Translations under genes and position numbers: made by a program
Part shown: positions 1 through 26,725 of the stretch, piece after piece
Layout: each line of letters starts with the position of its first letter
Numbering within the stretch: the first letter of the stretch is position 1
From: Candidatus Fimenecus sp.
Lineage (GTDB): Bacteria > Bacillota > Clostridia > Oscillospirales > Acutalibacteraceae
DNA: 44,813 bases
Assembly (NCBI GenBank): GCA_045534995.1
Contig: JAZSKT010000133.1
Span: 1-44,813 of the forward strand
Reading direction: 5' to 3'
The notes under the pieces: model-generated
Seen by the model: only the letters and a program-made list of their open reading frames with translations
Databases searched by the model: none
What the model was told of the DNA's origin: nothing

Positions 1-3000
1 GGTAGAGAAGATGGAAAAGTTGTAATTTATGGCGGAGCACAGCTTATGAATTACAACAGCACTGGCGCATTGTTTACTACAACTAACGGTACAGTTTCAA
101 GTCCTGCAAACACAAGTGTTATGACACTTTATAAGAACCCATCTTTAAGCGATATTACAATTCCTGCAGGTAAGATGGTGCTCTATTCTGCTCTTGTAGA
201 TGGTCTTGAATATAAACCAGGCACATATACAAAAACAAGCTATGAAGCATTGTTTAATGCACTTAAGGAAGGTTACGGAATTTATAAAGATGATAGTCAA
301 ACAGACAGCGCAACAATTACAGCGGCTGCTCAAAATATCAGAAATGCTATCGTTAACCTTGAAAAAGAAAGTTTCGATGTTGACTATCGTTCATTCCCAG
401 CAACACTTTATAAATTCGGTTATAACCCAGCTGCAAGTGGTGACACAAGATATTCAGCCGGTGGTGCAGCTTTCAATGCTCAGACATACGCTGAGATGGA
501 AGAAATAATCAGAGCTGATGAAAACCTTATGGAACAGATTAAGACTGTAATCGGCTATACCACAAGAACATGGAATAGTGGTCAGGCTGATGCAGCTCTT
601 GATACAGCAGTTACAGCTTATGCAGAGATTTATTCTCTTGCTTTCACCGGTAATTCATTATCATCAGGCGGTACAGATGTTTCTAACTTGCGAAACACTT
701 CTTGGAACGTATGGACAAAAACTGATACTACGGGTTCAGGCGAATCCAGTGATGGTGGCGCTTCTGTTCAAGGTATTTTCAGTACGATGCTTAACAATGG
801 CAATCCAACAGACCACGCTCCATATAGTGAATTGCCATATGGTAACATTGCAGATTATTTATCAGGTACTTATAATACTGCAAATGGTTTCTCAATTTCA
901 TTTGCCGATAGCAATTCATCAAATAATTCTGTTACACTTCCTGCACTTAAAGGTATAAGTGTTCACGTTAACGATATTTTCACAAGAGAAAATGTTCTTG
1001 TTGACGGTTCAACAACTAACTATTCAAAATACTATTGGGACTTTGACTTCCCATTCCTTACAACAACTAACAATTACGGTATCAATACATATAAATACTC
1101 AAGTAGTGATACAGATTACTTGTTCCAGGCTAAGTTTAATGATGAAAATCATACTGCGGAGGCACAGTTGACTGAAGGGTCCGGAAGCACTGGTTTCTTC
1201 CCATTTAACAATCAGTTGGATTCTAACTCTAACCCAAGTAGTTCTGTTTACCACTTCGGTATGAGCTTCTCAACAGACTTCTATATTCCTGTTTCGGGTA
1301 CATATTCAGATGGTGAGGATGTTGTATTCCGTTTCTCCGGTGACGATGACGTTCTTGTTTATGTTGATGATGTTCTCGTTCTTGATAACGGTGGTCTTCA
1401 CGCTGCACGTGAAGCAACTATCAACTTTACAAAGGCATCTGTAAACTATCAGTATGCAATAGACATAACTGAAGGAACAGTTAAGAATAAAACAGAATAC
1501 GGCACAACTTACACTTATGGTGCAAATGAAGAATACAATGGCGATATTCTTGCAGCACTTGAAAAGCTTAACGAAGTTCGTACAGACGGTGAATATCATA
1601 CTTTCACATTCTACTACCTTGAAAGAGGTTCAAATGAATCTAACTGTGAAATCGAATTCAATATCCAGCAGGCTTCTAACCACGTTCTTCTCTATGACGA
1701 AACATTGGTTGTTGACTATGGTCTTCCTGTTGAATACAACGTTAAAGCAAATGACAAGATGGACGAAATCCCAGGTCTTGGTTATAGTTACGAAGGTATA
1801 GTTAGGGCTAACAATGAGGTTGATTCAGTTGTTCTTTTCGATGAACCTACTGACCTTGTAAGTAGATTTGCTTCTGAAAATACTGTTCTTGATGTTCAAG
1901 GACTCAAGTACGGTACAGCAACAATGAGGGGTGACGGTCTCGTAACATATACTCCTAACACAATGAATATGACAGACAGAGATTATTTCTATACCTGTGC
2001 TGAGATTGAAGGAGACCCTACTTACACAAGAAATTATTATCAGTATGAACGTGCTGTCTTTATCCCTGCAACTACAGTCTACTATGAGGACAATTTTGGT
2101 GCAGATATAACCTTTAAGGATGGTTCTGGTGCGGCTAAGTGGACAACAGTTGGTGATTCAAATGTTTTTGCAGATGCAAAACAGGCTGCTGACCTTGTAG
2201 GCGACGTTATGGCAAATCCATACGGCTATGACCCGATTTATGCAGGTAATAATGCCGGTGATAATAAAGATTATACACAGTACAGCGGTTTCTCAGCACA
2301 GAAGGTAACTGTAAGTGCTGCGAATAATACAAAGAATGGCGGTACAAATCCAACAGTCGAATTCACATTTACAGGTACAGGCTTCGACATTATCAGTATG
2401 ACTGATAGCACAACAGGTACATTCTATGTTGACATCTTCGACGAAAACAACAATCAAGTTGGCAAGAAGATGGTAGTTGATACATACTACGGTTGTTCAT
2501 ACGGTCAGCTTTATGCGGATGCAAATGGTAAAGCAACTCTTGAAAATACGGGCAACCCACTTTACAAGAGTGCGGTAAATGAAGCTGTAACACCAAATCC
2601 TACATACCATTCTGCTGATGGAATAGGATATACAGAAACACCAACATATTACGATGCAAACGGTAATATTACTACAACAGAAACCGAAAATCCTGCATAT
2701 GCTTATGCATATGGTTGGGTAAATGCAGATAATGTTGAAGGTCTCTATCAGATTCCTGTAATCAAGAAGACAGGTCTTGACTATGGTACATATACAGTTG
2801 TAATCACTCCAATGTATTCAAAGTTGTTTGACAATACAGGAAAAGGACAGTTTGATGTTTACATCGATGCTATCCGTATTTATGACCCTGCAGGCAAGGA
2901 TGACAATATTGATTCATCAATCCTTACAGATTATAAGTATGATAACGAGTCCTATCCAAGCTATCTCACAATCAAGGATATGCTCATTGGTGCTGACTCA

Positions 3001-3732
3001 CTTTCAAAAGATTCAGCAACACAGGGTGTTGTATTTATCGACGGTATTGCTAAGCTTGATAACGACCTTGAAAAATACAAGTTGGCAGGTCCAAACAACG
3101 AACTTTACCTCGCAAAAGACTCAACAGCAGAAGGCCAGGCAGTTGCATTCGAGATTTGGGCAACCGCAATTCCTGATGAAGTTCAGCTTGGTGTAAAGAG
3201 TGTTAAGGGCAAGCCTACACTTGGCATCACATATGGTGATAACACAGTGAAGCAGGCAATCAATACTGCAACAGAAATGAATTACATTATTAACAACTTG
3301 CTTCCTGAAGATGGTAAACTTGAATGGTCAGAAGTTGTTGTTGATGGTGTACCATATTACAAAACTGATACTATTGTTATTCAGAACTTGTCTGATGACG
3401 CAAGCATCCTTTCTCTTACAAGCATGAAGTGGACATTTACAGGTGTTGGTCAGTACGGTCACTATGAAACACAAGCAACTGCAACTCCTGCTGTAATGTC
3501 ATTTATGTCAAGCAATGCTACTATAACCGATGCGTACACAATGATGGCATCAAATAATAATGCCGGAACAAATGAGGATATTAATGACGGCGGAGTAGAT
3601 ACTGAAATTATTCCTGGTGATGACGAGAATACAAATGATACTAACGACGAGTATCAGGAAGAGCTCACATTCATTCAGAGAATTATCAAAGCAATCACAA
3701 ACTTCTTCAAGAAGATTTTTGGATTAGCTTAA
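1..3732 (+). CDS. Large secreted/surface protein with a fibro-slime/PA14-like domain (5' end outside window)
   Basis: Frame 1 is open from base 1 (GREDGKVVIYGGAQL precedes the first Met), so the gene is 5'-truncated. The block FFPFN...FRFSGDDDVLVYVDDVLVLDNGGLH...YHTFTFYYLERGSNESN matches the fibro-slime/PA14 beta-sandwich signature. Composition is T/N/S/Y/G-rich. The C-terminus has an acidic stretch followed by an amphipathic tail, LTFIQRIIKAITNFFKKIFGLA. Confidence 0.8.
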   Translation, partial: GREDGKVVIYGGAQLMNYNSTGALFTTTNGTVSSPANTSVMTLYKNPSLSDITIPAGKMVLYSALVDGLEYKPGTYTKTSYEALFNALKEGYGIYKDDSQTDSATITAAAQNIRNAIVNLEKESFDVDYRSFPATLYKFGYNPAASGDTRYSAGGAAFNAQTYAEMEEIIRADENLMEQIKTVIGYTTRTWNSGQADAALDTAVTAYAEIYSLAFTGNSLSSGGTDVSNLRNTSWNVWTKTDTTGSGESSDGGASVQGIFSTMLNNGNPTDHAPYSELPYGNIADYLSGTYNTANGFSISFADSNSSNNSVTLPALKGISVHVNDIFTRENVLVDGSTTNYSKYYWDFDFPFLTTTNNYGINTYKYSSSDTDYLFQAKFNDENHTAEAQLTEGSGSTGFFPFNNQLDSNSNPSSSVYHFGMSFSTDFYIPVSGTYSDGEDVVFRFSGDDDVLVYVDDVLVLDNGGLHAAREATINFTKASVNYQYAIDITEGTVKNKTEYGTTYTYGANEEYNGDILAALEKLNEVRTDGEYHTFTFYYLERGSNESNCEIEFNIQQASNHVLLYDETLVVDYGLPVEYNVKANDKMDEIPGLGYSYEGIVRANNEVDSVVLFDEPTDLVSRFASENTVLDVQGLKYGTATMRGDGLVTYTPNTMNMTDRDYFYTCAEIEGDPTYTRNYYQYERAVFIPATTVYYEDNFGADITFKDGSGAAKWTTVGDSNVFADAKQAADLVGDVMANPYGYDPIYAGNNAGDNKDYTQYSGFSAQKVTVSAANNTKNGGTNPTVEFTFTGTGFDIISMTDSTTGTFYVDIFDENNNQVGKKMVVDTYYGCSYGQLYADANGKATLENTGNPLYKSAVNEAVTPNPTYHSADGIGYTETPTYYDANGNITTTETENPAYAYAYGWVNADNVEGLYQIPVIKKTGLDYGTYTVVITPMYSKLFDNTGKGQFDVYIDAIRIYDPAGKDDNIDSSILTDYKYDNESYPSYLTIKDMLIGADSLSKDSATQGVVFIDGIAKLDNDLEKYKLAGPNNELYLAKDSTAEGQAVAFEIWATAIPDEVQLGVKSVKGKPTLGITYGDNTVKQAINTATEMNYIINNLLPEDGKLEWSEVVVDGVPYYKTDTIVIQNLSDDASILSLTSMKWTFTGVGQYGHYETQATATPAVMSFMSSNATITDAYTMMASNNNAGTNEDINDGGVDTEIIPGDDENTNDTNDEYQEELTFIQRIIKAITNFFKKIFGLA

Positions 3733-3754
3733 AGTTGGAAGGAGGATACGAACA

Positions 3755-3997
3755 ATGAAAAAGACTTATGTTAAACCGCAAATTGCATATGAATCATTCC
3801 AACTTTCAACAAGTATTGCTGCAAACTGTGCACTGTTAGGTTCGGTATCGGCTCAGTATATTTGTCCGGTATATGACGAAGAAGTAGGTTTAAACTATTT
3901 TGCAGACAGTACGGCACTTTGTGATGTCGTTCCAGCAAATGGAATGACCCCTTGCTATGATGTTCCTTCAGAAAACTGGATGGTATTCTCATCATAA
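3755..3997 (+). CDS. 80-aa cysteine-bearing small protein; candidate RiPP precursor peptide
   Basis: Strong RBS GGAAGGAGGA at 3737-3746, 8 nt before the ATG. It has four Cys (C25, C37, C56, C67), no signal peptide and no TM segment. It sits directly upstream of the rSAM/SPASM + PqqD operon and is followed by a stable hairpin. Confidence 0.6.
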   Translation: MKKTYVKPQIAYESFQLSTSIAANCALLGSVSAQYICPVYDEEVGLNYFADSTALCDVVPANGMTPCYDVPSENWMVFSS

Positions 3998-4010
3998 ATA
4001 AAAAAATATA

Positions 4011-4049
4011 ACGGAGTTCGTCATAGCGATGGTGAACTCCGTTGCTTTT
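4011..4049 (+). terminator. Stable hairpin (partial terminator/attenuator) after the small peptide gene
   Basis: ACGGAGTTCGTCAT-AGCG-ATGGTGAACTCCGT forms a 14-bp stem (two G-U pairs) with a tetraloop, followed by TGCTTTTA, a short U-tract. No obvious promoter lies before the next gene at 4061. Confidence 0.55.
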
Positions 4050-4060
4050 AGGATTAGATT

Positions 4061-4837
4061 ATGAAACTTTATAAAAAGATTATTGTGGCTTTTTTGTGCA
4101 TTCTTACTGTTGCGGGACTTTGTGCCTGTAATAAAAATGATACTACAAATAATGATGTTGTTACAAACAATGATATTGTTACAAATAATGATGATGCCAC
4201 AAATAAAGATGTTGCTTCAAAAGAAGAAACAACAAATAAAATTCCTGTTATCACTGAAGAAGTTAAAGTGGAACAGGTTTCTGAATTTGAAGCAAAAGAA
4301 TCAAAAGACTCTCAAATCGGCATTACCGTTGACAGCTGGCTTAAAATCATCAGTATCGGTGAAAAAGATGGTGTTCTCAGTGTTTTTGTAAGAAACAATT
4401 CCAATGAGGACATTCAATATGCTCTTTTAAGTGTTATGACAGGTGATGGCAGGGCGGAATTTCCGATTTCTACACTAACGGCGGGTGCAAGTGCTACTCT
4501 CCGTTGTAATAATGGTTATGTTTTTAACGAGAATGCCGTTTATTATGGCTGGAAAGTTGAAGACAAGGCGATTTTTAAAGAAGAACTTTCTTGCTATCCT
4601 GATATTTTTGAAATTGACGGTGTTGACGGATTTATTTTAATTAAAAATATTTCCAAGAAGGATATTGAAGGAAAAATCTATATTTACTATAAAAATGTTA
4701 CTGACGGAGTTTATGATGATGGTGTAACATACAGAGCGTATGTTGATGGTCTTAAAAAAGGCGAAAGGGCACAGATTAAGACTCAACATTATTTAAAGGA
4801 CTCAAGTCGTATTATGTTCGTGACCTATGCAGAGTAA
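4061..4837 (+). CDS. Lipoprotein of unknown function with a repeat linker
   Basis: The N-terminus MKLYKKIIVAFLCILTVAGLCAC has a signal peptide plus a lipobox-like L-C-A-C. This is followed by four 6-aa repeats (TNNDVV/TNNDIV/TNNDDA/TNKDVA) and then a ~190-aa beta-rich domain. RBS AGGA lies 7 nt upstream. Confidence 0.75.
   Translation: MKLYKKIIVAFLCILTVAGLCACNKNDTTNNDVVTNNDIVTNNDDATNKDVASKEETTNKIPVITEEVKVEQVSEFEAKESKDSQIGITVDSWLKIISIGEKDGVLSVFVRNNSNEDIQYALLSVMTGDGRAEFPISTLTAGASATLRCNNGYVFNENAVYYGWKVEDKAIFKEELSCYPDIFEIDGVDGFILIKNISKKDIEGKIYIYYKNVTDGVYDDGVTYRAYVDGLKKGERAQIKTQHYLKDSSRIMFVTYAE
4145..4216 (+). repeat. 4 x 18-bp in-frame tandem repeat inside the lipoprotein gene
   Basis: ACAAATAATGATGTTGTT / ACAAACAATGATATTGTT / ACAAATAATGATGATGCC / ACAAATAAAGATGTTGCT, read directly from the sequence. 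Confidence 0.8.
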
Positions 4838-5663
4838 AAAATACAAGTTTTTTGATACTGTTATTCAGGTTTTAACTCCTGAAGAAATTGTTGATATAGA
4901 ACCTTATATCAATTTTTTAAGTGAGGAAGAACCTGATTGCACTATTACATTTGAATATGTGACACAACTGCCCGAATTAGCTGAAAATGTTACTACTGAC
5001 AGCGAAATCAGTTTTGCAACTGACGGTGATAGGAGTATGTGCTGGTATAAAAATCACGGTAAAGAAGGTTATTTTGCTTGCCGTATTTTTGATGGCGAAA
5101 ATTATCGTGTTCAGGTACTTGAGGAATATCGTGGTAAACTTTGGAACGGTATTATATTTAACCTTTTAGGCTTTGAGGAGATTATTGCGAAGCATAACGG
5201 TGTTGTTTTACATGCTTCTGCAGTATTGAAAAACGGAAAAATGATTCTTTTTACTGCTCCTTGTGGCACAGGTAAGTCAACTCAGGCTGATTTGTGGGAA
5301 AAATATGCAAATGCTGAAATCGTTAATGGCGACAAGGCTCTTGTAGGTTTAAAGGATGAACTGATTTTTGCAGGTGGACTTCCTTTTTCAGGCTCATCTA
5401 ACATTTGCAAGAATATTTCAGCACCTTTGGTTGCTATTGTGTGTCTTGGTCAGGCAAAAGAAAATTTAATCAGAAAAATAAGTGCAAAGGAAGCTTTTGT
5501 TGCATTGTTACAAGGGAATTATCGTTCAGGGATAACAAAGGCATCCTCGCAGATAACAATAGATGTATTAGAAAAAATCTGCAGTGAAGTTCCTGTGTAC
5601 AGACTTGATTGTCTGCCGGATAAAACAGCAGTTGAATGTCTTGAAAAGGAGTTGGGAATATGA
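4827..5663 (+). CDS. HPr kinase C-terminal-domain-like P-loop protein (HprK-related)
   Basis: HASAVLKNGKMILFTAPCGTGKSTQADLW resembles the HprK/P catalytic-domain pattern H-G-x-x-V...G-x-S-G-x-GKS-x-x-A-x-x-L. The start overlaps the lipoprotein stop by 11 nt, and the stop overlaps the rSAM start (ATGA). Confidence 0.7.
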   Translation: MQSKKYKFFDTVIQVLTPEEIVDIEPYINFLSEEEPDCTITFEYVTQLPELAENVTTDSEISFATDGDRSMCWYKNHGKEGYFACRIFDGENYRVQVLEEYRGKLWNGIIFNLLGFEEIIAKHNGVVLHASAVLKNGKMILFTAPCGTGKSTQADLWEKYANAEIVNGDKALVGLKDELIFAGGLPFSGSSNICKNISAPLVAIVCLGQAKENLIRKISAKEAFVALLQGNYRSGITKASSQITIDVLEKICSEVPVYRLDCLPDKTAVECLEKELGI

Positions 5664-6724
5664 GCTCAGAACCAAAATTATCAGCATATCTCCACTCAAA
5701 GGCGATTAGAATGGAATTGCCTGTTTCAGGCACTTTTGAATTGACTTCCCGATGTAATTTCCGCTGTGAGATGTGTTATGTTCACGACGAATGTCACAGT
5801 AGCGATAAGCTTTCAACAGAACAATGGTTAAGTATTGCGGAAGACGTTAAAAAAGCAGGTACACTTTTCCTGTTGCTTACAGGTGGTGAGCCTCTTCTTC
5901 GCGAGGATTTTCCTTATTTGTACACAGAACTTAAAAAAATGGGCTTTATGGTGTCTATTAACACTAACGGAAGTCTGTTACATAAGTATTTTGATTTGTT
6001 CAAAAAATATCCTCCTTCAAGAGTGAATATTTCTCTTTATGGTGCTGATGATGAAGCTTATGAAAAGCTTTGTAAGACAAAAGCCTTTTCACAGGTGTTG
6101 GACAATGTAAAAAAACTTAAGGAAATGGGAATTTCAGTTAAGTTTAATACTGTTTTCACAAACAGAAACAGCCATCAGTATAAGGAAATAATAGATATTG
6201 CTGAATCACTTGATGTCCCATTAAGCACAACTGCATATGCTTATCCTCAGGTGCGTCTTGATAAGGATTTCGGTGACAATTCAGGCAGAATGTCACCTTT
6301 TGAAGCGGCTCAATGTACGATTAATTGCGAAAAATACCGTTTCCGTAATGGCGATTTTTCAGAAAGAGCAAAAAAAATTCTCGAGGAATCCAATGATGAA
6401 AAATGCGACAGAGTTTCTTGTCGTGCAGGTAGAGCAGCATATTGGATAACAAGTGAAGGCATTATGCAAGCTTGCGGAATGTTACCTAAAATACAGATAA
6501 ATGTCCTTGAAGAGGGCTTTGAAAAAGCTTGGAAACAGTTGGTTGCAGAGGTAAAAGAGATTCGTTTGCCGAAAAAATGTGTGAACTGTAAATATTCAAA
6601 TATATGTCACGCGTGTGCTGCGATGTGCTATACTGAAACAGGATATTTTGATAGTGTACCTGATTATGTTTGTCAAATGAGTAAAAATATTTATGAATTG
6701 ACCGAGAAAGAGCAAGGTGAATAA
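5660..6724 (+). CDS. Radical SAM enzyme with a C-terminal SPASM domain (peptide-modifying type)
   Basis: CNFRCEMC is a CxxxCxxC motif at residues ~32-39, followed by GGEPLL. The C-terminal auxiliary-cluster motifs are CRAGRAAYWITSEGIMQACG and CVNCKYSNICHACAAMC. RBS AAAAGGAG lies 8 nt upstream. There is no N-terminal RRE domain. Confidence 0.9.
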   Translation: MSSEPKLSAYLHSKAIRMELPVSGTFELTSRCNFRCEMCYVHDECHSSDKLSTEQWLSIAEDVKKAGTLFLLLTGGEPLLREDFPYLYTELKKMGFMVSINTNGSLLHKYFDLFKKYPPSRVNISLYGADDEAYEKLCKTKAFSQVLDNVKKLKEMGISVKFNTVFTNRNSHQYKEIIDIAESLDVPLSTTAYAYPQVRLDKDFGDNSGRMSPFEAAQCTINCEKYRFRNGDFSERAKKILEESNDEKCDRVSCRAGRAAYWITSEGIMQACGMLPKIQINVLEEGFEKAWKQLVAEVKEIRLPKKCVNCKYSNICHACAAMCYTETGYFDSVPDYVCQMSKNIYELTEKEQGE

Positions 6725-6725
6725 A

Positions 6726-6989
6726 ATGCAGATAAAAAAAGAAATGATACTTCGTGAAATTGCAGGCGAGAATATTCTCGTTCCCGGCGCTGATGCTGTC
6801 CTTGACCTTAACGGACTTTTCGTTATAACAGAAACAGGCGCATTTATATGGAAACTTCTTCCTGAAGTGGAATCGGAAACAGAAATCCTCGATAAAATGT
6901 TGGAAGAATACGAAATCGACAGGGAAACTGCACAAAAAGATATTGCAGAATTTCTTGAAAGATTAAGAAAATTCGGAATAATCGACTAA
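6726..6989 (+). CDS. PqqD-family peptide chaperone (discrete RRE)
   Basis: The 87-aa protein has EIAGENILVP...LNGLFVITETGAFIWKLL...EILDKMLEEYEID...AQKDIAEFLERLRKFGII, a typical PqqD size and pattern. RBS AAGGTGA lies 5 nt before ATG 6726. An in-frame GTG at 6717 is an alternative start. The gene overlaps the rSAM stop. Confidence 0.8.
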   Translation: MQIKKEMILREIAGENILVPGADAVLDLNGLFVITETGAFIWKLLPEVESETEILDKMLEEYEIDRETAQKDIAEFLERLRKFGIID

Positions 6990-7039: not shown

Positions 7040-8368
7040 TCAATGTTTAAAGCAGTTGTTATATTCGTTAACCCAGCGCAAAACGGTTTTACGATTATAT
7101 GTATTAGGCATTGCAGCAGTTACGGCAGTTGCTCTTGCTAACTGCAATCCCATTTTAACAACTTTACCGAGAATGACCTTATTATTGATAAGACCGTTAA
7201 GTTTGACTTTAATGTCGTCTATTGACATTCCTCCCAACATTGCACCAAGACTTGTGGAATCAGCATCAATTGTCATATCCTCTGCATTGAGAATTCCCTT
7301 TGCGAAAATGTAATCAAGTTCAGGACCTTCAAGTCGTGTAAGCAACAGCTTGACACAAGCAAGGGGTGCTAAAGCAGCGCCGATTTCTTTGTAGAAATTC
7401 TTTTGATATGTCCAGAGCGTCTCTGCACTAAATGAACTGCTAAAATCACTTGAAACAGCATCTGCGAGGATTTTAGCAGCTTTCAAGGAGTTTGCAATAC
7501 CTGAACCAATAACAGGAACTGTCATAAATGCGCTGTCGCCAATTGCGGCATATCCGTCAGCAACAAGAACACCCAAAGGCTGACGAACAGGAATATTGGC
7601 AAAACTGTCGCCACGGACAATTTCCGTTCCGATACTTGGATTTGATTCTCTCATTTTGTTAATTTGGTCAATTGCATAATCACGGTCAAACTTATGAAAT
7701 CTTCCGATAAGAACATCTGTATGTTCCTCTTCGGTTGCAATCCATGAAATACCCAACTCATTGTTCGGAAGGAGAATCAATTTGAATTTGTCTTTTTCTT
7801 CTACTTCAGCAGCTTTGTTAAAGAAAGCTCTGTAAACATAAAACTGCTCATATTCAATAGGTGAGTTTTGAATTCCCATTGATGATGGCAACGCACGTCT
7901 TACAGGAGAGTTAAGACCACAAGCGTCAATAACAAGGTCGGCAAGATATTCGCCCTTGTCAGTTTTGATACCCACAACTCTGTTGCCAAAGAGAATTGGC
8001 TTTTCAATATTTTCTTCGTATTGGAATTTAACGCCTGCCTTTTCAGCGTGTTCAATCAGGTGAGCGTAAATATCACTACGCTCCATCTGAATTTCCTTTT
8101 TATCTTCTTCAGTATTCTGTGTAAGTGCTGTTTCCATGGCAGGACCATAAAATGTCATATCCTGTTTTAATTTGTATTTGCTTTTATCAGGAATGGGAAT
8201 ACCAACAGCCGTCCAGCCTTTTTTATCAAAAATATCTGTCCAGTCATAGCCCATTTTATCTTTAGCATTTCTTTCGTATACAGTTACATCATAACCTCTT
8301 TTTGTAAGTAACATAGCTGTGGCAATACCGCCATGTCCGCCACCGGCAACAATAATCTTATTTCCCAT
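7040..8368 (-). CDS. FAD-dependent oxidoreductase (geranylgeranyl-reductase/FixC-like family)
   Basis: MGNKIIVAGGGHGGIATAMLLTKRGYDVTVYERN is a GxGxxG dinucleotide-binding fold, and DACG...R and GD..A motifs follow. I chose the second Met because AAGAGGG lies 7 nt upstream of it; the ORF-track start at 8389 has no RBS. Confidence 0.85.
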   Translation of the reverse strand: MGNKIIVAGGGHGGIATAMLLTKRGYDVTVYERNAKDKMGYDWTDIFDKKGWTAVGIPIPDKSKYKLKQDMTFYGPAMETALTQNTEEDKKEIQMERSDIYAHLIEHAEKAGVKFQYEENIEKPILFGNRVVGIKTDKGEYLADLVIDACGLNSPVRRALPSSMGIQNSPIEYEQFYVYRAFFNKAAEVEEKDKFKLILLPNNELGISWIATEEEHTDVLIGRFHKFDRDYAIDQINKMRESNPSIGTEIVRGDSFANIPVRQPLGVLVADGYAAIGDSAFMTVPVIGSGIANSLKAAKILADAVSSDFSSSFSAETLWTYQKNFYKEIGAALAPLACVKLLLTRLEGPELDYIFAKGILNAEDMTIDADSTSLGAMLGGMSIDDIKVKLNGLINNKVILGKVVKMGLQLARATAVTAAMPNTYNRKTVLRWVNEYNNCFKH

Positions 8369-8433
8369 AAAAAACCCTCTTTTCAACATTTTTTTACATT
8401 TCTGTACATTATAAAAATTATACCATAAAACAC

Positions 8434-25453: not shown

Positions 25454-26725
25454 TTATATTTTCTTTGTCAGTTTTCCGCAAATAACACCAAATTTATTGC
25501 TGTAGAATTTTCTTTTCTTTTTCTGTTCTTCAGTAAGTTTTTCCTCAATAATCGGTTTTTTAAGGCTTTCCATATTGCCGTCGTCACAGATGAACGCCTG
25601 AGTCAGACAGATACCGCCTGTACCTTTAAGCTGTGCACGGACATAGCAGGAAATCTTATCAGCATGTTCACCGAGAGTGATAGTTGATGTGATTTCGCCG
25701 TCTTTTTCAATGGTAGTTGTTTTGATTGTTTCACCGTCGGCAATCCAATCGATTTCCTTGCAATTAATACCTTTGATTGTAATTGTATTAGCATCGTCAT
25801 CAACGTCAATTCCAACAACACGAGGACAAGGGCCAACGCCCACAAAATCTTCGCCCAACTCGTTTTTAGCATAACGGGCAATTGAGAAAAATGTGCCTGT
25901 TTCCATAGCATTACGGAGAGTCTGGAGTGAATATTCAGGGAGAATAAAGTCCATAAATGCTGTGTCAATCTGGTCAACCTGATGTGCATCGCTGTTTGAA
26001 AAACCGAAAACCTTGCGTCCGTGAGGAGTGAGAAGTTTTAAAAGTTCATCCCAGAGAATTCGGTCACTGCGGTTTGGAATATCGTACATATTAAGAACTT
26101 CAATACCCATACATGAGGGGTATTTTTTAAGAAGATTAGCAAAGAAATGAATGTTCTTTTCTTCCTTTGCACAGTCGGGATTTTTCTTCGCTTGTAACAA
26201 ATCGGTCGGGTGATTGATATGAGAGATGCCGCCGCTTTTTTCAATTAAACCCATTGGAATTTCATAGTCAAATTCAACACCTTGAATACCCTCATAGGCA
26301 TTATCGGTGAAATATCCGTTAACATGGTTTTTCATAATGGTAAACATATTGCATTCAATAGCATCAGGCACATCCTCAAGACCACGCTTTTTAGTTCTTA
26401 AGTTGTTTTCAGTTTTGTATGTACCGTTTTTTATTGCCTTGTACTGTTCTTCTGTAAGATAACTGCGTTTACCGTGCCAGAGATATTGGAAATTGAAAAA
26501 AGGAATGTGTGTAGGCTTTTCATTCCAACGCTTACCTAAAATTCCGTGTTCAGCAAAAGCGACGATGTCAAAATCGTTGTCATAAAAGCCTTTAATCATA
26601 TCTGTCATAGTGTCGTTTGCATCACTATATGTTGAATGAGTGTGCAAATTGGTTTTGTAGTGATTTTCCATATCACCTAAAAGGTTCATGACACCTTCGT
26701 AAGGATTTTTGATTGTATAACTCAT
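25454..26725 (-). CDS. PHP-domain metal-dependent phosphoesterase family protein
   Basis: NLHTHSTYSDA is PHP motif I, followed by AFAEHG, SHINHP and NSDAH histidine/aspartate motifs. A ~110-aa beta-rich C-terminal extension and a basic tail follow. Confidence 0.85.
   Translation of the reverse strand: MSYTIKNPYEGVMNLLGDMENHYKTNLHTHSTYSDANDTMTDMIKGFYDNDFDIVAFAEHGILGKRWNEKPTHIPFFNFQYLWHGKRSYLTEEQYKAIKNGTYKTENNLRTKKRGLEDVPDAIECNMFTIMKNHVNGYFTDNAYEGIQGVEFDYEIPMGLIEKSGGISHINHPTDLLQAKKNPDCAKEEKNIHFFANLLKKYPSCMGIEVLNMYDIPNRSDRILWDELLKLLTPHGRKVFGFSNSDAHQVDQIDTAFMDFILPEYSLQTLRNAMETGTFFSIARYAKNELGEDFVGVGPCPRVVGIDVDDDANTITIKGINCKEIDWIADGETIKTTTIEKDGEITSTITLGEHADKISCYVRAQLKGTGGICLTQAFICDDGNMESLKKPIIEEKLTEEQKKKRKFYSNKFGVICGKLTKKI

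Follow-up and report, generated by a model that had tools for sequence, protein, structure and literature searches.

Gene content of the cassette

We analyzed a 44,813-nt stretch of DNA from Candidatus Fimenecus sp. (assembly GCA_045534995.1, contig JAZSKT010000133.1, positions 1 to 44,813; hereafter the window). Near its start lies a run of co-directional genes for a giant secreted surface protein, a four-Cys peptide, a lipoprotein, a P-loop protein, a radical SAM (rSAM)/SPASM enzyme and a discrete PqqD-type RiPP recognition element (RRE), as shown in Table 1.

Table 1. Features of the cassette, in window coordinates.
Position	Strand	Feature	Description
1..3732	+	Giant secreted surface protein gene, 3′ part	1228+ codons, cut by the window start; PA14/fibro-slime domain
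1678..3450	+	C-terminal module of the giant protein	~590 aa; shared by all giant proteins linked to these cassettes, whatever their N-terminal adhesin-type domains
about 3664..3729	+	C-terminal basic amphipathic helix of the giant protein	LTFIQRIIKAITNFFKKIFGLA
3740..3745	+	Ribosome-binding site	AGGAGG; 7 nt after the giant gene stop codon, 9 nt before the peptide ATG
3755..3997	+	Precursor-like peptide	80 aa; N-terminal MKKxYxKPxIxFESFxLSxSIAxGC; Cys 25, 37, 56 and 67; C-terminal C-Y-[HD]-V-P-x5-[VL]-F-x-S ending in Ser80
4009..4050	+	Terminator-like hairpin, putative attenuator	16-bp hairpin (4009-4044) followed by CUUUUA
4061..4837	+	Lipoprotein	258 aa; lipobox LCAC, N/T/D-rich linker, beta-rich domain of two similar repeats
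4827..5663	+	ScmC-family P-loop protein, predicted HPr-kinase/PEP-carboxykinase fold	278 aa; invariant H129, P145-x-G-x-G-K150-S-T and N167-G168-D169
5660..6724	+	rSAM enzyme	354 aa; full SPASM C-terminal domain, no N-terminal RRE
6717..6989	+	Discrete PqqD-family RRE	87–90 aa; likely start ATG at 6726, by comparison with homologues

The preliminary description had reported the last five genes as a tightly linked operon, and this observation is confirmed: all five ORFs lie at the positions it gave and their domains check out. Their reading frames overlap as described, with 4827 against 4837, ATGA at 5660-5663, and GTG 6717 or ATG 6726 against the stop at 6724. Two corrections apply. Position 3733, where the cassette had been taken to begin, is simply the base after the stop codon of an upstream gene that belongs to the unit, and the first gene of the operon is that giant gene rather than the peptide gene.

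We first examined the predicted enzymes. The rSAM protein matched PF04055 at 7.8e-30 and carries C32xxxC36xxC39 and eight further Cys (C254, C272, C307, C310, C316, C319, C323, C338), with G267 four residues before C272. All are invariant in 14 homologues, and this is a full SPASM pattern. The first cluster starts at residue 32, so there is no room for a fused RRE. The last gene product matched PF05402 at 3.2e-17, with lasso_PqqD_Bac as its best NCBIfam model, and all four of its RRE hits among solved structures are lasso or LPP-type B1 RREs (TbiB1 at 1.4e-6, then 9x8z, TfuB1 and 9x90). For the P-loop protein, the HprK-like label in the preliminary description is weak by sequence. TIGR04352 scored 21 bits against a cut-off of 200, over 32 residues, there was no PF07475 hit at E<=0.1, and a profile aligned the His/P-loop/Asp core with L. 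casei HPrK/P but only at E 0.28. In contrast, the fold supports the label: in an AF2 model with pLDDT 92, all 50 best Foldseek matches in the PDB (49 at E<=0.001; E 3e-7 to 1e-3) are PEP carboxykinase and HPr kinase/phosphorylase. The precomputed Pfam family is PF27840 ScmC.

We next examined the remaining products. The peptide had no Pfam or NCBIfam hit, and its AF2 model (pLDDT 46) gave no confident fold. Its family holds 31 close homologues and 930 representative clusters. Of 149 representatives, 146 have YxxP, 119 have exactly 4 Cys, 139 end in Ser and the other 10 end in Ser plus one residue; the spacing from the last Cys to that Ser is fixed at 13 residues in 138 of 146. The lipoprotein had no Pfam or PDB match, and its homologues carry either a lipobox or an uncleaved N-terminal membrane anchor. 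The giant gene is open from base 1 of the window and its product matched PA14 at 1.2e-7 and Fibro_Slime at 3.9e-12. The full-length homologue at locus L081, a close relative, is 1703 aa with a signal peptide, and homologues keep a C-terminal amphipathic, aromatic-rich tail. An alignment of 23 sequences of the C-terminal module has 33 invariant columns, many of them polar residues but none of them Cys, and searches of Pfam, NCBIfam and the PDB returned no match, nor any recognizable fold or catalytic family.

Conservation and synteny of the six-gene unit

We then asked whether these genes recur together, and found homologous cassettes in about 80 species of gut and rumen Clostridia. Among loci with enough flank, the neighbors of the rSAM gene recur far more often than chance: the kinase-like gene in 72/77, the lipoprotein in 64/69, the peptide in 55/68 and PqqD in 69/75. 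The giant gene lies in synteny upstream of the peptide in 48/55 loci, and in most of the 40 loci scored its stop lies 13–27 nt before the peptide start, or the two genes overlap. All six genes are present in 39/52 loci with enough flank, across Acutalibacteraceae, Oscillospiraceae and other Clostridia, down to 43% rSAM identity, and ORF clustering of 80 loci found only these six families conserved; no exporter, protease or regulator recurs. Three distant cassettes (L084–L086) repeat the order giant, peptide, beta-rich protein, ScmC, rSAM, with different N-terminal domains on the giant (VWA, BNR/Big_2) but the same C-terminal module. PqqD is absent from these and from L081, so the RRE is not universal in the wider family.

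The hairpin behind the peptide gene has an MFE of −19.8 kcal/mol with z = −4.3. A simple terminator scan did not call it because the U-run is short. Nonetheless, an equivalent hairpin follows the peptide stop codon in 50/52 loci, with median z −4.8 and different sequences. The peptide-to-lipoprotein spacer is mostly 5–80 nt and is largely filled by the hairpin, which leaves little room for a separate promoter.

Two findings that would have counted against the preliminary reading were looked for and were not obtained. Homologous rSAM/PqqD pairs do carry a homologous small ORF, and the rSAM does not group with sulfatase maturases: its nearest solved relatives are SkfB (6e-24), MoaA, SuiB and PqqE, of which SkfB, SuiB and PqqE are peptide-modifying enzymes, with anSME far behind (2e-8). 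The interpretation in the preliminary description is partly supported. Its core holds, namely an uncharacterized RiPP-type cassette that fits no characterized class, with a discrete RRE and an HprK-like protein, but four points need amending. The unit is not a self-contained five-gene operon, since the giant gene is the tightest and most conserved neighbor of the peptide gene, and this argues against a stand-alone antibiotic. The statement that HprK-like proteins in RiPP clusters have no assigned chemistry is out of date, and the near-invariant C-terminal Ser had not been noticed. The PqqD protein is of the lasso-B1 type and is not universal. Finally, the absence of an immunity gene is not established, as the lipoprotein could itself be an immunity or receptor protein.

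Relation to known systems

In paeninodin-type phosphorylated lasso peptides (PadeA/B1/B2/C/K), PadeK/ThcoK phosphorylate the C-terminal Ser of the precursor (PMC9266682), and in linear polyphosphorylated peptides (LPP: LppA/K/B/S/D/N), LppK polyphosphorylates Ser3 of the core (PMC13381572). Both share with the present cassette a discrete B1-type RRE, a leader with a [Y/W]xxP motif close to an MKK… start, an HPr-kinase-like P-loop enzyme and a conserved precursor Ser, which is strictly conserved in both; YxxP is the lasso-type recognition motif (PMC12710340, PMC13381572). They differ in that no lasso cyclase, B2 protease, SpI-like peptidase, MsbA-type exporter or NTP transferase was found conserved within 6 kb here, the class-defining enzyme is an rSAM/SPASM protein, the peptide has four conserved Cys, and the P-loop protein belongs to ScmC rather than Hpr_kinase_C, with NGD where HPr kinases and lasso kinases have DD.

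The SynChlorMet cassette (ScmC, ScmD, ScmE, ScmF) and the HPr-rel-A system (TIGR04352/TIGR04353), both computationally defined and uncharacterized, have the same component types: a ScmC/HprK-related P-loop protein, a PqqD-like protein and rSAM/SPASM protein(s). The window proteins gave weak hits to these very models, all far below the equivalog cut-offs (ScmC 20 against 125, ScmD 19 against 100, ScmE 75 against 400, HprK_rel_A 21 against 200, PqqD_rel_X 23 against 35). Here there is one rSAM, not two, and a precursor family, a membrane-anchored protein and a giant secreted protein are identified that are not known to be part of those definitions.

In sactipeptides and ranthipeptides (for example SkfA/SkfB, subtilosin AlbA, SCIFF/CteB), an rSAM enzyme with auxiliary clusters likewise acts on a Cys-containing ribosomal peptide, a hairpin follows the precursor gene, and the sactisynthase SkfB is the nearest solved relative of our enzyme. 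In contrast, the RRE here is discrete and lasso-type rather than fused, the leader motif is YxxP rather than HIxxI, the putative core is long (~55 aa), the cassette has an extra kinase-like protein and is linked to a giant protein, and the AlbA, SkfB and StsB models, like all NCBIfam models that hit the rSAM, scored far below their cut-offs. Quinohemoprotein amine dehydrogenase maturation offers a resemblance of logic only. There, the rSAM/SPASM enzyme QhpD cross-links QhpC, an ~80–110-aa, four-Cys peptide with a leader, in the cytoplasm, and QhpC then becomes a subunit of a larger extracytoplasmic protein encoded in the same operon. We found no QhpD, QhpE or QhpF equivalent and no heme or quinone signature; the only QhpG-like hit was the FAD motif of an unrelated, non-conserved neighbor.

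Possible roles of the cassette

We considered several readings of these data. A stand-alone antimicrobial RiPP (a sactipeptide- or ranthipeptide-like bacteriocin), with the lipoprotein as immunity protein, export and leader cleavage by genes elsewhere, and the giant protein as a vertically inherited neighbor, is possible but unlikely. A Cys-rich precursor with an rSAM/SPASM enzyme, an RRE and a following hairpin is classic bacteriocin operon anatomy, SkfB is the nearest solved rSAM, the lantibiotic immunity proteins NisI and SpaI are lipoproteins, and an ABC exporter pair lies next to the cassette in L081. However, that pair is not conserved, and no exporter, protease or regulator recurs in the 80 loci. 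The close giant-to-peptide junction persists down to 43% rSAM identity and in distant cassettes whose giants have different N-terminal domains, which is hard to explain by inheritance alone, and both ends of the peptide are strongly conserved, unlike the fast-changing cores typical of bacteriocins.

Still less likely is a cofactor-like or small-molecule pathway in the manner of PQQ or mycofactocin, in which the rSAM would act on the invariant C-terminal residues (…[VL]-F-x-S-COOH) and the rest of the peptide would be a discarded scaffold. A small peptide, a PqqD-type chaperone and an rSAM/SPASM enzyme form the PQQ and mycofactocin core, MftC and PqqE are among the NCBIfam hits (82 and 78 bits), and the near-invariant C-terminus with its fixed spacing to the last Cys resembles the conserved C-terminal GVY of MftA. 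All hits, however, are far below the family cut-offs, no peptidase, oxidoreductase or glycosyltransferase is conserved nearby, four conserved Cys and an 80-aa length are unnecessary for such a scaffold, and the three conserved partners with export or membrane-anchor signals (giant protein, lipoprotein) point outside the cell. That the rSAM matures the giant protein before export, as anaerobic sulfatase-maturing enzymes do, with the small ORF as chaperone or regulator, is very doubtful, since although the giant gene is the most constant neighbor, its module has many invariant polar residues and an anSME-like rSAM lies upstream in two variant loci (L069 and L079), anSME is only a distant relative of this rSAM, the giant module has no invariant Cys, and the peptide has a leader-type recognition motif, conserved Cys and, in most loci, a dedicated RRE.

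Based on these comparisons, the reading we prefer, with moderate confidence, is a six-gene unit for RiPP-like maturation of a peptide that works together with the giant surface protein. The gene content and domains are confirmed and the synteny, predicted hairpin and sequence conservation were observed, whereas transcription, recognition, cross-linking, phosphorylation, export and the partnership of peptide and giant protein are inferred, from sequence, predicted structure and analogy alone. In this view, the giant and peptide genes would be transcribed together and at the highest level, with the hairpin letting only part of the transcription run on into the four maturation and accessory genes, as inferred from the anatomy. 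In the cytoplasm, by analogy, the lasso-B1-type RRE would bind the YxxP-containing N-terminal ~24 residues of the peptide and present it to the rSAM/SPASM enzyme; L081 and L084–L086 lack PqqD although the latter keep the YxxP motif, so RRE-dependent recognition is not universal. The rSAM would then cross-link the peptide at its four Cys, with thioethers of the sactipeptide, ranthipeptide or QhpC kind as the most likely product.

The HprK-fold protein would use ATP to phosphorylate a Ser, for which the C-terminal Ser is the best candidate by analogy with PadeK/ThcoK, and the conserved Ser18/Ser20 near the leader-core junction the alternative by analogy with LppK. The one kinase-less variant (L049) still has a peptide ending in Ser, so that the kinase alone does not explain that residue, and the ScmC family, with NGD in place of DD and scores below the curated cut-offs of every HprK-related model, may not be a protein kinase. 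No leader peptidase or exporter is conserved within 6 kb, which leaves release and export of the peptide unexplained. The final step is the weakest, as it rests on conserved gene linkage only and nothing shows a physical link between the peptide and the giant protein: the modified peptide would end up outside the cell, where it would act with the conserved C-terminal module of the giant protein and the membrane-anchored beta-rich protein as a subunit, anchor or assembly factor.

Gene content, conservation and variants of the cassette

We first examined gene content and found that the preliminary description, which had placed five tightly linked ORFs in this region, was correct in its observation: all five are exactly where it put them, the start/stop overlaps are real, and AGGAGG lies 9 nt before the peptide ATG. 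The features are collected in the table below. The window is an ordinary chromosomal contig, the rest of which holds dnaX, topA, smc, ftsY, dprA and sugar-metabolism genes, and its closest relatives are Candidatus Fimenecus and other Acutalibacteraceae MAGs from ruminant and human guts. A 423-aa ORF elsewhere in the window had no Pfam match at E<=1e-5.

Coordinates of the cassette features, of neighbouring ORFs and of variant loci (L numbers denote loci that carry homologous cassettes)
Feature	Sequence	Position	Strand	Description
Gene for the large upstream protein	window	base 1 to 3732		1228-codon ORF, cut by the window start
C-terminal module	window	1678-3450		~590 aa, shared with distant giant proteins
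C-terminal tail of the giant protein	window	3664-3729		amphipathic
Peptide gene	window	3755-3997		80 aa; Cys at 25, 37, 56 and 67
Hairpin	window	4009-4044		16 bp, followed by CUUUUA
Lipoprotein gene	window	4061-4837		lipobox LCAC
P-loop (kinase-like, ScmC) protein gene	window	4827-5663
rSAM enzyme gene	window	5660-6724
PqqD-like protein gene	window	6717 or 6726 to 6989
FAD protein gene	window	7040-8389	-	geranylgeranyl-reductase-like
ORF	window	25454-26725	-	423 aa
Kinase-less variant	L049	4980-11597		altered gene order
Divergent-peptide variant	L063	3920-8255		two tandem rSAM paralogues
Divergent-peptide variant	L074	3893-7421
Variant with anSME-like rSAM upstream	L069	1738-7110
Variant with anSME-like rSAM upstream	L079	1080-7366
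Close relative without PqqD	L081	11878-14857		85% rSAM identity
Distant double cassette	L084	whole locus
Distant double cassette	L086	whole locus

To ask whether the neighbours of the rSAM gene recur, we scanned one genome per species, which returned 80 loci encoding rSAM homologues of 43–87% identity. Counting only loci with enough flank, tblastn with the window proteins detected the kinase-like gene in 72/77, the lipoprotein in 64/69, the peptide in 55/68 (and in more by motif search), PqqD in 69/75, the large upstream protein in 48/55, and all six together in 39/52. All-against-all clustering of the ORFs in the 80 loci showed that only these six families recur within 6 kb; there is no seventh conserved family, and no exporter, protease, lasso cyclase, regulator or sulfatase among them. 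The divergent FAD gene, whose product matches a DGGGPL reductase model at 4e-44 (below its cut-off) and occurs here in a Clostridia genome, neighbours the cassette in just three close loci, and its weak QhpG-like hit covers the FAD-binding motif only; we therefore rejected it as a component.

The upstream gene belongs to the unit. Its frame is open to base 1, and in the close relative L081 it encodes 1703 aa with a signal peptide. It has a PA14/fibro-slime domain, and in most of the 40 loci scored its stop lies 13–27 nt before the peptide start, or the two genes overlap. A Pfam search of the giant protein found only PA14 and scattered surface repeats, and neither the full-length protein nor its C-terminal module matched PDB sequences or NCBIfam. 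Homologues end in a short amphipathic tail rich in aromatic and basic residues, for example …RIIKAITNFFKKIFGLA, …GWLNKLFSRWF and …IEDIFGWLFR. In loci L001–L078 the giant proteins end, after an acidic or PT-rich linker, in a ~15–25-residue amphipathic tail rich in Phe/Trp and Lys/Arg, which looks like an unrecognised surface- or membrane-anchoring motif.

More distant ScmC/rSAM pairs, found through ScmC homologues of 37–38% identity, repeat the order giant secreted protein, 84–95-aa peptide of the same family, membrane-anchored beta-rich protein, ScmC, rSAM. Their giant proteins carry VWA, BNR/Big_2 or no known domains, but all of them share the ~590-aa C-terminal module with the window protein. 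This module has 33 invariant positions and no match in Pfam; it was also searched for an invariant Cys that could pair with the peptide in a disulfide link, and there is none. Two of these distant contigs, L084 and L086, carry two cassettes each beside giant secreted proteins with different N-terminal domains (VWA, BNR/Big_2); every cassette has its own peptide of the same family, and all but one (the second cassette of L084) has its own beta-rich membrane protein, but no PqqD gene is detectable by tblastn at E<=10.

Other loci depart from this arrangement. L049 has the order peptide, lipoprotein, rSAM, PqqD, then giant protein, without a kinase-like gene; its peptide still ends in Ser but has Ala in place of Ser18. 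L063 and L074 have a divergent peptide (MKKTYQKPELFYEDF…AAGSGTQAS), and the ~1230-aa upstream protein of this variant did not cluster with the other giants. In L069 and L079, a ~670-aa membrane protein and an anSME-like rSAM (…CNLSCEYCFY…) replace the giant protein and peptide upstream of the cassette genes (lipoprotein-ScmC-rSAM-PqqD in L079; ScmC-rSAM in L069, with PqqD by tblastn only), and no family peptide was found. L081 has no PqqD gene, and only 116 nt separate its rSAM gene from a convergent pair of ABC exporter genes.

We next considered the region directly after the peptide stop codon. The hairpin found here has an MFE of -19.8 kcal/mol with z = -4.3 in folding with shuffles, although a simple terminator scan did not call it because its U-run is short. 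A hairpin of different sequence sits at the same place in 50/52 loci (median z -4.8), often with a longer U-run, and largely takes up the peptide-to-lipoprotein spacer, which is mostly 5–80 nt. From this anatomy we infer one operon with an internal attenuator, in which the giant protein and the peptide would be made in excess over the four downstream proteins.

Sequence and structural affinities of the cassette proteins

The peptide is a member of a real and large family. It has 31 close homologues, all 77–82 aa apart from two shorter sequences of 55 and 57 aa, and a profile search found 930 representative clusters at E<=1e-3, almost all of the 150 listed being 70–90 aa. Among 149 representatives, 146 have [YFW]xxP near the N-terminus, 119 have exactly four Cys, 139 end in Ser and the other ten end in Ser plus one residue. 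The N-terminal 25 residues are strongly conserved, with the consensus M-K-K-x-Y-x-K-P-x-I-x-F-E-S-F-x-L-S-x-S-I-A-x-G-C; the C-terminal consensus is C-Y-[HD]-V-P-x5-[VL]-F-x-S, and the last Cys lies 13 residues from the terminal Ser in 138/146. In contrast, the middle of the peptide varies. An AF2 model gave no confident fold (pLDDT 46), which fits a flexible precursor but is weak evidence because the alignment is shallow, and no Pfam or NCBIfam model matched. Although IAxGC resembles a lipobox, the N-terminus appears too polar to be a Sec or lipoprotein signal, and a secretion signal in the peptide was rejected on sequence inspection alone. Profile searches with the lipoprotein against PDB sequences and Pfam found nothing beyond its signal peptide.

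The preliminary description had called the P-loop protein HprK-like, and by sequence this label is thin. TIGR04352 scores 21 bits against a cut-off of 200, ScmC (TIGR04249) scores 20 against 125, and there is no PF07475 hit at E<=0.1. An alignment of 26 homologues shows an invariant H129, an invariant P-loop (P145-x-G-x-G-K150-S-T-Q-A) and an invariant N167-G168-D169; a profile of this alignment aligns these residues with the His, GxSGxGKS and DD of Lactobacillus casei HPrK/P, but only at E 0.28. Nonetheless, the predicted fold settles the superfamily: an AF2 model with mean pLDDT 92 has ATP-dependent PEP carboxykinases and HPr kinase/phosphorylases as all 50 best PDB matches, 49 at E<=0.001 (E 3e-7 to 1e-3). 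The Pfam family is PF27840, ScmC, a membership that comes only from precomputed hits. The protein is thus a P-loop protein of the ScmC family with a predicted HprK/PEPCK fold. Of the four His-Lys-Asp-Asp residues that lasso-tailoring kinases need (PMC9266682), H129, K150 and D169 are invariant, while the first Asp is replaced by G168. The family also has two invariant Cys (C194, C262) and an invariant G-x-S (G189, S191) within a conserved G-L-P-F-S-G-S-S stretch.

The rSAM enzyme matches PF04055 at 7.8e-30 and carries C32xxxC36xxC39 and eight more Cys in the SPASM arrangement, all invariant in 14 homologues; its first cluster begins at residue 32, so there is no fused RRE. All NCBIfam hits (AhbD, MoaA, NirJ2, MftC, PqqE, ScmE, AlbA, SkfB) are far below their cut-offs, and no known family can be assigned. 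Among the sactipeptide and ranthipeptide maturase models, AlbA scores 67 against 850, SkfB 65 against 300 and StsB 68 against 625 bits. Of the PQQ and mycofactocin models run against the window proteins, PqqE scores 78 against 381, PqqD 15.5 against 46 and MftC 82 against 265 bits, and the precursor is unrelated. All four SynChlorMet models (ScmC, ScmD, ScmE and ScmF) are hit by window proteins, but at 19–75 bits against cut-offs of 100–400, and there is one rSAM per cassette where SynChlorMet has two. Against solved structures the best match is the sactisynthase SkfB (6e-24), followed by MoaA, SuiB and PqqE, with anSME far behind at 1.8e-8; no sulfatase is present in the cassette.

The PqqD-like protein matches PF05402 at 3.2e-17, and its best NCBIfam model is the Bacillota lasso PqqD chaperone. 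All four of its RRE hits among solved structures are lasso or LPP-type B1 RREs: TbiB1 at 1.4e-6, then 9x8z, TfuB1 and 9x90. YxxP is the established lasso recognition motif, whereas sactipeptide RREs use HIxxI (PMC12710340). A 2026 study shows that LPPs (linear polyphosphorylated peptides) share [Y/W]xxP leaders, discrete RREs and HprK-like kinases with paeninodin-type lasso peptides (PMC13381572). The present cassette has this same recognition-plus-kinase set attached to an rSAM/SPASM enzyme, but within 6 kb it lacks the Asn-synthase-like cyclase and B2 cysteine protease that define the lasso class, and the SipW-like SpI leader peptidase, MsbA-like exporter and NTP transferase that define LPPs (PMC13381572).

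Inferred maturation pathway and alternative readings

The interpretation offered in the preliminary description, an uncharacterised RiPP-type system, was supported in part. Two findings that would have counted against it, namely that homologous rSAM/PqqD pairs never have an adjacent homologous small ORF and that the rSAM groups with sulfatase maturases or cofactor pathways, had been set out in advance, and neither was observed. Our analysis establishes the gene set with its conservation and order, the predicted fold of the P-loop protein, the SPASM Cys pattern, the lasso-type affinity of the RRE and the conserved features of the peptide. The chemistry is inferred, including that the peptide is modified at all and that a leader is removed. 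In this view the RRE binds the YxxP leader and presents the peptide to the rSAM enzyme, which cross-links it at the four Cys, most likely as thioethers; the four invariant Cys fit Cys-to-carbon thioether cross-links but do not show them. The ScmC protein would then phosphorylate a Ser. The near-invariant C-terminal Ser matches the PadeK/ThcoK precedent, in which the C-terminal Ser is 'extremely conserved' in kinase-containing clusters (PMC9266682), while Ser18/Ser20 after an F-E-S motif loosely recall the F-E-T|x-x-S site of LPPs (PMC13381572). That the modified peptide acts outside the cell with the giant protein and the membrane-anchored beta-rich protein is only suggested by gene linkage.

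Several findings count against this pathway. No peptidase or exporter is conserved within 6 kb in the 80 loci; PqqD is missing from L081 and from the distant cassettes L084–L086, which keep YxxP; and the ScmC family has NGD rather than DD. We also asked whether kinase-less cassettes lose the C-terminal Ser, but L049 is the only informative locus and it keeps the Ser, which counts slightly against the proposed phosphorylation.

Of the alternatives, a stand-alone bacteriocin with a lipoprotein immunity protein remains possible, although it does not explain the deep conservation of the giant-gene-to-peptide junction or the strongly conserved peptide termini. A PQQ- or mycofactocin-like pathway acting on the conserved C-terminus is also possible, but it lacks any accessory enzymes and leaves the four Cys unexplained. 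Maturation of the giant protein by the rSAM enzyme is unlikely, given the leader, the RRE and the distance from anSME. A defence role was rejected, since PADLOC gave only the generic rSAM-core similarity to viperins over residues 26–173.

Significance of the cassette

The component types were foreseen in the computational SynChlorMet and HPr-rel-A definitions, and we regard the cassette as an RiPP-type rSAM system that differs from these in that a precursor family, a membrane-anchored partner and a giant secreted partner are identified here, so that a concrete, testable chemistry can be proposed. Full-text searches, in a collection that is incomplete and hence no proof of absence, found no paper that combines HPr kinase with SPASM and none that describes this cassette. 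There is a fair chance that the biology, a modified peptide serving a giant surface protein, is new. The furthest-reaching version of this view, which we consider possible but less likely than not, is that these are an undescribed class of ribosomal peptides, cross-linked by an rSAM/SPASM enzyme and phosphorylated on a C-terminal Ser by a ScmC/HprK-fold enzyme, that are not antibiotics but obligate partners (subunit, anchor or assembly factor) of giant adhesin-like surface proteins in gut and rumen Oscillospirales. The orphan ~590-aa C-terminal module of the giant proteins and the membrane-anchored beta-rich protein would then form the extracellular receiving end.

If the reading is right, it would assign a first substrate and a testable activity to the ScmC protein family, which has been a computational orphan since the SynChlorMet and HPr-rel-A cassettes were defined, and the short peptide and small number of enzymes make the chemistry directly testable. 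It would define three new families: the peptide (about 930 clusters at 50% identity), the membrane-anchored beta-rich protein and the C-terminal module of the giant proteins. It would also show a lasso-type leader/RRE pair recruited to an rSAM enzyme. In the abundant, mostly uncultured gut and rumen Clostridia that carry the cassette, RiPP-type chemistry (radical cross-linking plus Ser phosphorylation) would then be used to build or serve a cell-surface structure, not to make a diffusible antibiotic.
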